A stretch of DNA of 21,135 nucleotides, from the NCBI GenBank assembly GCA_050246815.1, contig JBFWVI010000026.1, forward strand, positions 22,819 to 43,953. The letters are read 5' to 3'. This document shows positions 8,274 to 10,239 of the stretch, piece after piece; position 1 is the stretch's first letter, and every line of letters starts with the position of its first letter. Source of the stretch: Bdellovibrionales bacterium (GTDB lineage Bacteria > Bdellovibrionota > Bdellovibrionia > Bdellovibrionales > UBA1609). The notes under the pieces are model-generated. The model searched no databases. It was given only the letters and a program-made list of their open reading frames with translations, and was not told the DNA's origin. The position numbers and the translations under genes are program-made.

Positions 8274-8795
8274 TTACTCTGCGAATTCCGCGCCGACCAG
8301 CAACCACTCACGGGTTTGAGGGTCTTCAACTAGCAACGCTTCGCCGGCCATGAAGGCGCCAGTGAATTCGATCACGTTTACATTCAATTGCGTGTTGCCC
8401 TTCAAAATATCGCGGACCTCACGCGCCAGGATTTCACGCGGGCGGGCACTGCGAAACTCCATCTGCTTAGTCGACAAATCCGTAGCCCAGCGAACGGCAC
8501 GCTCGGTGCTGAACACGGGTCTGACTTCGACCTCATGCACAACATTGGGTGCCAGCACGCGATGGACCACTTGTTTGACGGTGTTGTTGCGCGCTTCTGC
8601 GCCCTCTTCGACCATGCGCTGAGCACCGTTAATCAACCACACATTTTCATTCTGATTAAACTCAGCCACCTTCACGTACTCAGCGCGAATCGCGCGCAAA
8701 TCCTCGCTCTGCAAGCGCTTCACAGACTCGAACTTGGCGCCGAACGCCGAAAAGCTCGCGACACTTAAAACCAATGCAACAAAAGTTGTTTTCAT
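8274..8795 (-). CDS. Hypothetical secreted protein
   Basis: Sec-type signal peptide MKTTFVALVLSVASFSAFG/A. GGAGG is 5 nt from ATG 8795 but only 2 nt from ATG 8798. No recognised domain. Confidence 0.85.
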   Translation of the reverse strand: MKTTFVALVLSVASFSAFGAKFESVKRLQSEDLRAIRAEYVKVAEFNQNENVWLINGAQRMVEEGAEARNNTVKQVVHRVLAPNVVHEVEVRPVFSTERAVRWATDLSTKQMEFRSARPREILAREVRDILKGNTQLNVNVIEFTGAFMAGEALLVEDPQTREWLLVGAEFAE

Positions 8796-8889
8796 CATAC
8801 CCTCCCCGGTATGAGCGCATACTTACGCCAGACACGATCACGTATGTAGCCTTGGAACTCGGCAGGCAAAATCTACAAACCGCCTCAAA

Positions 8890-8931
8890 TTGACGCAGCG
8901 CTAAACCAAAAGGTGCCAGGCACCTTTTGGT
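8890..8931 (+). repeat. Copy 2 of the 40-bp palindromic element, inverted relative to copy 1
   Basis: TTGACGCA-gcgcta-AACCAAAAGGTGCCAGGCACCTTTTG(GT); 36/40 identical to copy 1. The core at 8905-8931 has perfect 13-bp arms. Confidence 0.85.
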
Positions 8932-8984
8932 GTTTCAGGGTGACGCGAAATTGATTGGATTTTGTCTGAGTTTTGGACTCCCTC

Positions 8985-9013
8985 TCGACCTTTTTTATGC
9001 GTGGCGTTATTCT
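8985..9013 (+). promoter_or_regulatory. Putative sigma70-type promoter of the riboswitch-containing RNA
   Basis: TCGACC (8985-8990), 17-bp spacer, TATTCT (9008-9013). Predicted start ~9020, just before a hairpin at 9024-9047. Confidence 0.45.
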
Positions 9014-9183
9014 AAGAACCTACTCCTATGTAACGGACGTTATAGGAAAAGGGGGAGCCTGTGGTGCGAAGACCTAGGGACATGCGTCTCGACCCACCGC
9101 CGAAGTGACGATGCGGTTGAGGTTGTAGAAGGATCAAATAACTCTATCCCAAGGGGGTTTGCAGTTAAGAGGATCCAATGCTC

Positions 9184-9277
9184 CTCTTTGTGAAGGGCAA
9201 ACCGCCGGAAACGGCGGGACGCAAAACCATGAGGCTACAGCCCCTGAAAAGGCCAGGCCCGTCAGGTCGCCAAAGAG
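9184..9277 (+). promoter_or_regulatory. c-di-GMP-I (GEMM-I) riboswitch aptamer
   Basis: GGGCAAACCGCCG-GAAA-CGGCGGGACGCAAAACC matches the GEMM consensus (GGCAAACC..GNRA..GGGACGCAAA). The 3' end reads GGTCGCC, and CTCTTTG/CAAAGAG can form the closing helix. Confidence 0.92.
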
Positions 9278-9318
9278 ATTGATTTTGGTGCAACAACAAA
9301 TGAGGAAGCATCGGTTAG

Positions 9319-9348
9319 AACCCGCCACAGTGTTGGCGGGTTTTTTTT
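9319..9348 (+). terminator. Intrinsic terminator
   Basis: (AA)CCCGCCA-cagtgt-TGGCGGG followed by T8. Confidence 0.92.
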
Positions 9349-9355
9349 AAAGGTC

Positions 9356-9379
9356 GCTGCTTCTTTTGGCAGGAGCAGC
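9356..9379. terminator. Hairpin just past the mrp stop; possible terminator or 3' stabiliser of mrp mRNA
   Basis: GCTGCTTCT-tttggc-AGGAGCAGC; no good U-tract on either strand. Confidence 0.35.
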
Positions 9380-9385
9380 CCCCGC

Positions 9386-10150
9386 TCAAAGACCTCCCGC
9401 TAATTGATTGAATGCTTTAGCTTCGACTGAACTTGGGCTACTGTCCACAGCCGGAATCCCAGCTTCACAGGCCAAAGCCACTTGTGGATTGAATGGCACT
9501 TCAGCCAACCTTTTAATTCCCCGGCTGTCCAGAAAGGCATGCAGCTCCCCCCGCGGGAACAGCTGCACCTTTTCACCACCAACTTCCATGTAGGCCATGT
9601 TTTCGACCACCCCCAAAACAGGGATTTTAACTTGTTCGAACATGCTGATGGCCTTTTTGGCGTCAGTCAGCGCCATATTTTGCGGTGTGCAGACCACAAT
9701 CGCCCCGTCGACGGGTACTTTTTGCGCCACCGTCAGGGCCACATCGCCTGTGCCAGGCGGCAAATCGATGATTAAATAATCCAGTTCTCCCCATGCCACA
9801 TCACGAAAGAACTGTTCCATGGCCTTAAACAGCATTGGCCCCCGCCAAACCACAGCCATCTCTTCATCCACCATAAAGCCGATGCTCATCAACTTGATGC
9901 CATGGCGAACCAAGGGGGCAATTTTTTGACTGGAGTCCATGTCTGGCCGCTGATGAAGAGCCCCAAACAAACGAGGCACGCTGGGACCGTAAATATCAGC
10001 ATCCAGTAAACCAACTTTGTGTCCCGCATTCTTTAAGGCGACAGCCAAGTTGGCCGCCACGGTGCTTTTGCCCACCCCGCCCTTGCCCGAGCCGACGGCG
10101 ATGATTTTACGCACACCAGGAATGGAAGCTTGTTGTGAGAACGGATTCAT
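9386..10150 (-). CDS. mrp: Mrp/ApbC/NBP35-family P-loop ATPase
   Basis: GSGKGGVGKST, LLDADIYGPS, VVWRGPML, WGELDYLIIDLPPGTGD, GVVENM. ATG 10150 follows GAGG. Confidence 0.93.
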   Translation of the reverse strand: MNPFSQQASIPGVRKIIAVGSGKGGVGKSTVAANLAVALKNAGHKVGLLDADIYGPSVPRLFGALHQRPDMDSSQKIAPLVRHGIKLMSIGFMVDEEMAVVWRGPMLFKAMEQFFRDVAWGELDYLIIDLPPGTGDVALTVAQKVPVDGAIVVCTPQNMALTDAKKAISMFEQVKIPVLGVVENMAYMEVGGEKVQLFPRGELHAFLDSRGIKRLAEVPFNPQVALACEAGIPAVDSSPSSVEAKAFNQLAGGL

Positions 10151-10239
10151 AGGCACCTCGTAAAAGTGAAGCCTTTTTCGCACGGAAGTCTGTCCACGGC
10201 AACCCCCGAACTTCCTGGACCAGGTCCCTTGACCTGGGC

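Follow-up and report, generated by a model that had tools for sequence, protein, structure and literature searches.

Bdellovibrio bacteriovorus HD100 produces a hugely abundant attack-phase RNA, merRNA, whose reads at that stage about equal those of all protein-coding genes together (Karunker et al. 2013, PMC3627812). The merRNA promoter is the strongest native one among those tested. In the portions of that paper cited here, it is listed as non-FliA. The same portions term merRNA non-coding, propose that it stores c-di-GMP and report no conservation outside Bdellovibrio; a reading frame was sought downstream of the riboswitch alone, where no conserved one was present. The Vc2 riboswitch sRNAs of Vibrio cholerae also carry a GEMM-I aptamer on the 3′ side of the RNA. 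According to the cited part of that study (10.1101/617340), the aptamer at the 3′ end stabilizes the upstream RNA on ligand binding, and Vc2 stability rises with c-di-GMP; Vc2 additionally controls the downstream gene tfoY, and the sRNA ends arise from decay.

The RNA described here lies in a 21,135-nucleotide stretch of a Bdellovibrionales genome (the window; all positions below are window positions). Like merRNA of HD100, it is a stand-alone c-di-GMP-I RNA beside mrp, with a predicted non-FliA promoter, a terminator and the same order of elements, and in both RNAs a short frame led by a Shine-Dalgarno (SD) motif lies upstream of the aptamer (12 codons in HD100, read by eye). The two differ in length (~330 nt predicted versus 445 nt), in the end of that frame (DPPPK in the window, HHDDELK without any proline in HD100) and in a second frame behind the aptamer, which HD100 merRNA has (by eye) and which is poorly supported in the window RNA. 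Unlike Vc2, the window RNA has a terminator, no downstream gene, and a probable coding frame upstream. The features are as follows.

9004..9013, + strand: predicted extended −10 promoter element, non-FliA type (sequence; loose motif in relatives)
9020..9348, + strand: predicted stand-alone transcript of ~330 nt, probable merRNA orthologue (promoter plus terminator; fold; synteny)
9050..9057, + strand: Shine-Dalgarno of ORF1 (−10.9 kcal/mol against the anti-SD 10-mer)
9061..9108, + strand: ORF1, GTG start, 15 codons, MVRRPRDMRLDPPPK, TGA stop (conservation and codon-position tests)
9087..9127, + strand: predicted hairpin of the Asp-Pro-Pro-Pro codons and bases past the stop (folds; swap test weak)
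9167..9173, + strand: SD-like purine motif, rarely with a start codon behind it (GGAGG in this zone in 69/100 loci)
9175..9186, + strand: pyrimidine-rich 5′ strand of a predicted helix closing the aptamer domain (minimum-energy folds)
9186..9274, + strand: c-di-GMP-I (GEMM-I) aptamer with G20 (Rfam, 73.4 bits)
9302..9314, + strand: purine-rich 3′ strand of the closing helix (folds; overlaps a weakly supported ATG frame at 9300)
9319..9348, + strand: intrinsic terminator, hairpin plus T8 (sequence and fold; similar hairpin in relatives)
9386..10183, − strand: mrp (NUBPL/ApbC P-loop NTPase), synteny marker convergent with the RNA (PF10609, E 1e-92)

A c-di-GMP-I unit beside mrp

The first-pass annotation had placed a GEMM-I aptamer at 9184-9277, and the Rfam c-di-GMP-I model (RF01051) bears this out, matching 9186-9274 (+) over its full length (model positions 1-87) at 73.4 bits (gathering score 35; E 5.5e-13). 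This is the sole match in the 3.4-Mb, 99% complete genome. The ligand-contact bases G20, A47 and C92 and the GAAA loop are all present in the Rfam alignment. Position 20 is G in the window and in all 91 loci that could be anchored (9 were not), and the A that marks cGAMP-sensing GEMM-Ib aptamers occurs in none of these. Because G20A is the rule cited as separating c-di-GMP from cGAMP sensing (cited part of PMC6140456), G at this position argues for c-di-GMP, rather than cGAMP, as the ligand that the window aptamer would sense.

The strong T8 terminator of that annotation also stands, with a stem of 8 bp at 9320-9341 and its T8 run at 9341-9348 (−15.2 kcal/mol); the list of a consensus terminator scanner does not include it. 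Behind it comes only the convergent mrp gene, which ends at 9386, as had been claimed, so that the arrangement for cis control of a downstream gene is missing. A second hairpin at 9357-9380, between the terminator and the mrp stop, is possibly the terminator of mrp.

Among 150 genomes from the order, 99 gave an aptamer match, a single one in 98. The sole genome with two (G114) carries them on one strand of contig C4 at 78157-78248 and 79007-79097, 850 nt apart. We analyzed 100 loci, namely one for each of the 99 aptamer genomes (the weaker second copy being left out) and one further locus, with flanks of 1.5 kb for 35 loci and ~3 kb for 65. A terminator-like hairpin follows the aptamer in 99 of the 100, its T-run beginning 61 to 131 nt past the aptamer. 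Within the fetched flanks, mrp is present in 69 loci, mltD in 50, and either in 88. The RNA lies downstream of mrp in the same orientation in 64 of the 69 and faces it in 5; the window is among these 5, so the RNA unit moves as a block. No conserved co-oriented gene follows the RNA in the 100 loci: by a crude longest-ORF rule, the next long frame is convergent in 70 loci, co-oriented in 25 and absent in 5.

Published merRNA (1,073,741-1,074,185) lies 212 bp from the mrp gene Bd1134, followed by Bd1136, a 140-amino-acid hypothetical protein gene arranged as in the window; slt and mltD are ~11 kb away. The best four named relatives of the window Mrp are from Bdellovibrionales (69-77% identity). 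The end of the published merRNA promoter is found exactly in four of our loci, with predicted RNA lengths of 447-453 nt versus the published 445. The window RNA, a stand-alone unit adjoining mrp with a predicted promoter and terminator of its own, is thus almost certainly an orthologue of Bdellovibrio merRNA; the earlier wording, homologue or analogue, can be sharpened on the strength of mrp synteny, element order and a similar non-FliA −10.

The earlier proposal of a promoter giving a ~330-nt RNA fared less evenly. The −10-like element at 9004-9013 is common in relatives, a loose version occurring upstream in 68 of 100 loci versus 13 of 100 control regions, a soft count because the motif was drawn from the same loci and some matches are internal; on the other hand, a sigma-70 scan called no promoter for the window unit. 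No FliA −35/−10 pair at the right spacing was found in 8781-9200. A hexamer similar to the window −10 ends the published PmerRNA, and the mapped 5′ end of merRNA lies ~16 nt past the matching hexamer (read by eye), which would place the 5′ end of the window RNA near 9020, give or take ~10 nt. The whole 331-nt unit folds better than shuffled sequences (z = −2.9). The ~160-nt structured 5′ part of the first-pass annotation did not hold up: the 5′ 164 nt give z = −0.32, with 71 of 200 shuffles folding equally well, and this part is probably coding. None of the public runs recorded as RNA contained this stretch. In three small-share public runs whose RNA label is uncertain, pieces of 152, 277 and 185 nt align nearly end to end inside 9034-9309, and the flanking genes are matched just by short unrelated pieces; as these runs have no DNA control, the pieces are at most a weak hint of expression.

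Some features of the surroundings may be recorded. A REP-like palindromic repeat of ~40 nt lies at 8890-8930, with several further copies in the contig; allowing up to 5 mismatches, its first 36 nt match 28 times in the genome. The resemblance of its opening bases to the aptamer core is probably accidental. Neither the 88-amino-acid frame at 8927-9193 nor the flanking hypothetical genes match a Pfam family, and two exact-sequence look-ups were empty. ARAGORN reported two tmRNA-like matches on one contig of the same genome, one of which overlaps a tRNA-Met and is probably spurious.

Seventeen loci elsewhere in the phylum, outside the order (L112-L133), carry a separate kind of c-di-GMP-I unit that also stands alone. 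It has a closing helix and a terminator of its own and often precedes queE. These units resemble the window RNA in their purine/pyrimidine helix around the aptamer, a similar −10 and a terminator, and differ in having another closing helix and a location away from mrp. No DPPP frame was seen by eye in the 17 loci.

ORF1, a short frame upstream of the aptamer

ORF1 ends in Asp-Pro-Pro-Pro-Lys-stop and occurs once in the genome, where no long frame ends in or contains its motif. Frames chosen by SD and length alone (8 to 17 codons, 30 to 200 nt upstream of the aptamer) were found in 66 of 100 loci, versus 9.3 ± 2.6 in 30 dinucleotide shuffles (maximum 14). When aligned on the stop, 62 of the 66 have a typical tail and 4 an atypical one. 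Six more typical frames fall outside the filter, four with 28 to 31 codons, one further upstream and one with a weaker SD.

Variation among these frames is coding-like. In 20 sequences, one per genus from the window's family (f1) and two others (f3 and f12), the entropy at codon positions 1/2/3 is 0.58/0.40/1.34 bits, and Pro at −4 is present in 20 of 20. Across four sets, pN/pS is 0.17-0.32. In the same three families, Asp occupies −5 in 27 of 34 frames, Pro occupies −4, −3 and −2 in 33, 30 and 29, and Lys or Glu is last in 30. Family f10 has a different tail, His-x-Asp-x-x-Pro-Lys (His −7 in 28 of 31, Asp −5 in 28, Pro −2 in 24, Lys last in 30), and a weak codon-position signal (0.84/0.69/0.85). 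Asp at −5 and Lys/Glu at −1 are common to both tail types; all these residue counts are overstated, as kin are not independent. Near-identical public contigs differ within ORF1 by one silent and one Arg-to-Lys change, and their sole indel is upstream of the SD.

The N-terminus is free, with lengths of 9 to 16 codons and a 9-residue version in two loci. All four f5 loci (L011, L012, L015 and L098) have frames of 28 to 31 codons whose ATG sits at the predicted transcription start, so they would be leaderless. Both g49 loci of f3 (L021 and L026) carry three tandem frames ~330 nt upstream of the aptamer, two ending in DPPPE and one in a Phe-Pro-Pro-Pro-Ile variant. From these patterns, we consider it very probable that ORF1-type frames are translated under selection, and likely that a merRNA-type RNA, published as non-coding, carries a conserved coding frame. 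Among the literature matches listed, none reports a peptide in merRNA; subscription papers, including those by Dwidar that use the merRNA promoter, lay outside that scope.

ORF1 resembles the leader peptide frames of TnaC and the Pro-rich MgtL, which combine a short frame and strong SD with conserved C-terminal residues by the stop. It differs in that no downstream gene could be attenuated, its spacing to structure is not fixed, and its stalling is a prediction.

Two other attack-phase sRNAs in the cited part of PMC3627812 also contain SD-led frames when read by eye: APsRNA5, the second most abundant, has one of 29 codons ending Gly-Pro-Pro-stop, and APsRNA2 has one of 15 codons.

The 3′ half and the separability of the two modules

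The closing helix around the aptamer, predicted in the window's fold, is conserved with moderate support. Of its 8 pairs, 7 or more form in 72 of 100 loci, the mean being 6.87 versus 5.98 in shuffles; in 31 of 41 genera, a locus's own strands pair better than strands combined across genera, and single loci beat their shuffles at p ≤ 0.05 in 18 of 100, the window not among them. Enforcing the aptamer fold lowers the predicted unpaired probability of the two flanking strands from 0.22 to 0.01 and from 0.38 to 0.15. A switch pairing the SD-like motif with the pyrimidine strand was considered and rejected (6.21 of 8 pairs versus 5.99 shuffled; p ≤ 0.05 in 4 of 100 loci). An ATG stands 3 to 10 nt behind the SD-like motif in 9 loci.

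SD-led starts (≤ −7 kcal/mol) behind the aptamer are frequent in some families (19 of 21 f2, 23 of 36 f10, 4 of 4 f5 and 2 of 2 f4 loci) and less so elsewhere (1 of 15 f1, 7 of 20 f12 and 0 of 2 f3 loci). In f2 loci such as L002, L007 and L103, a strong SD leads a frame rich in Pro that crosses a C-rich terminator loop; its stop often falls in or past the T-run, and the mRNA would then be non-stop. In f10 loci such as L035, L049 and L056, the second frame has a nearly invariant end, DWFHSP-stop, and this constraint may act on the RNA, as there is little silent variation.

Each module also occurs alone. Thirty genomes without an aptamer match were searched for mrp, and 29 gave a locus. At 7 of the 29, a −10-like element, an SD and a DPPP-type frame are followed by a terminator 60 to 150 nt on, the −10-like element and the terminator having been identified by eye; the other 22 of the 29 have no DPPP-type frame within 1.5 kb. 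When 18 of the 29 loci, among them all seven units, were scanned with Rfam up to E 5, no c-di-GMP match appeared. One of the seven units belongs to the window's own genus; on a quick Mrp tree of 67 rows (f2, f10 and f12 with one row per genus and state), it groups with the window in a clade with support 97 that thus holds units both with and without an aptamer. Losses of the aptamer are not countable on this tree, since its deep nodes are unresolved. In the opposite direction, the aptamer is kept and ORF1 is lacking in all 21 f2 loci, in 3 g39 loci and in a few others.

An 18-nt codon pattern of the peptide matched in 50 of 150 genomes of the order versus 10 control matches. Reading 30 further pattern matches gave two SD-led units, L170 and L192 (the latter identical with the L150 unit); the others lacked a strong SD. 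An eighth aptamer-less unit was found in another family. Outside the order, the motif is at chance level (9 of 292 genomes versus 8 controls). Gene content is uninformative about the RNA, with GGDEF in 60 of 60 genomes and csrA in 142 of 150.

Possible roles of the RNA

We favor, with a probability of about 0.4, a dual-function RNA in which nascent-peptide pausing and a ligand-closed 3′ domain both lengthen RNA life. This reading builds on the aptamer, the terminator, the synteny, a frame with coding-like variation and units with either module alone, all of which are observed. Transcription from 9004-9013 would give a stand-alone RNA of ~330 nt on which ORF1 is likely translated; the nascent peptide would likely pause its own ribosome near the stop, and c-di-GMP binding would close the 3′ aptamer domain. 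Pausing and the closed domain would each slow decay, so that the hunting cell, which does not grow, would have a long-lived RNA retaining ribosomes and, where the aptamer is kept, c-di-GMP. Nascent arrest peptides typically combine conserved C-terminal residues by the stop with an unconstrained N-terminus. We arrive at pausing and decay protection from that free N-terminus, the fixed stop-proximal residues, the existence of very short and of tandem frames, and the precedent of Vc2; the 9-residue version is short for a diffusible product.

Several points weigh against this dual-function reading. Although PPP stalls ribosomes, EF-P relieves the stall and Asp is not among the stall-promoting residues (cited part of PMC4176338), and EF-P is encoded in the genome. 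Polyproline stalling would not be general, since the HHDDELK frame of published merRNA has no proline and the f10 tail differs; a fixed coupling of frame to aptamer is missing, since the stop-to-aptamer distance varies from 41 to 142 nt. The absence of ORF1 from the f2 and g39 aptamer loci counts against it as well. We also considered an SD roadblock. STAB-SD stabilizers need a host 5′ exonuclease, RNase J, whose C-terminal domain (PF17770) was not found in the 99% complete genome, which removes this simplest roadblock mechanism. A bolder form of the pausing idea, in which order-wide arrest peptides ending Asp-x-x-Pro-Lys/Glu-stop park ribosomes on merRNA until aptamer-set decay frees them at prey entry, seems to us unlikely.

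The RNA may instead serve as a very small mRNA: its peptide, once released, would work in trans by way of the Asp-x-x-Pro-Lys/Glu C-terminus, and the 3′ riboswitch would tie mRNA stability, and with it peptide dose, to c-di-GMP. We regard this as possible though doubtful. It would explain why conservation in the aptamer-less units extends to little beyond promoter, SD, frame, short linker and terminator, why Asp −5 and Lys/Glu −1 recur in both tail types, and the g49 triplication, which fits dosage; it sits poorly with peptides of 9 to 31 residues with a free N-terminus, with the lack of a candidate partner or of any long genomic frame bearing the motif, and with the f2 loci, none of which has ORF1.

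A non-coding c-di-GMP store, as proposed for merRNA and close to the sponge of the first-pass annotation, with the frame a by-product of a conserved hairpin, is rather improbable as a complete account. The very high published attack-phase level of merRNA (cited part of PMC3627812), the retained ligand-contact positions and the f2 loci with an aptamer and no ORF1 would suit it. So would the Pro codons lying inside the hairpin in many loci and a last codon that ends in G in 29 of 30 instances. Against it, the Pro codons are free to vary at their third positions, with 28 distinct strings among 30 instances, and a hairpin swap test was near chance, the own sequence being better in 18 of 32 and 18 of 30 loci. 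Moreover, whatever the length of the frame, and whether it has an SD or not, SD, start and stop remain in frame. In the aptamer-less units, the RNA is not a c-di-GMP sponge, because the unit persists without an aptamer at 7 of 29 mrp loci, and a pure sponge is unlikely because either module can be kept alone and the frame is conserved. What survives of the sponge is buffering as one of two possible roles.

CsrB/Rsm-type sRNAs carry many GGA motifs in loops, and the purine motifs of the RNA could similarly be its working part, in CsrA titration or RNA pairing, with frame and aptamer tuning its level. This, too, is improbable. GGA outside the aptamer is in excess (652 versus 558 ± 13 in shuffles), csrA is present in the genome and the SD-like motif is widely kept with rarely a start codon behind it, but the excess is 1.17-fold and largely due to SD motifs, the tested span of the window contains 6 GGA, GGA lies inside 26 of 99 terminator hairpins versus 191 of 712 background hairpins (which are longer), and csrA occurs with or without the RNA. 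A conventional translational switch of a second micro-frame before the terminator is about as improbable a role for the aptamer, for even with SD-led starts frequent in f2, f10, f5 and f4, a closing helix that masks the purine tract of that start, and such a frame in published merRNA, the starts are less frequent in f1, f12 and f3, the window's best (−5.1 kcal/mol) opens a frame that runs into the terminator, and no frame sequence is shared across f1.

A riboswitch behind a coding frame with no gene following is a rare arrangement. Since 2013, merRNA has had no tested function, and the working model has been a non-coding sponge confined to Bdellovibrio. The present analysis adds an order-wide unit whose conserved upstream frame can outlast the aptamer. 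If that frame stalls ribosomes, it would define a new arrest-peptide family. The relatives that keep ORF1 without the sensor offer a simple test of what merRNA is for, and a single start-codon change set against an aptamer point mutant would separate the models.
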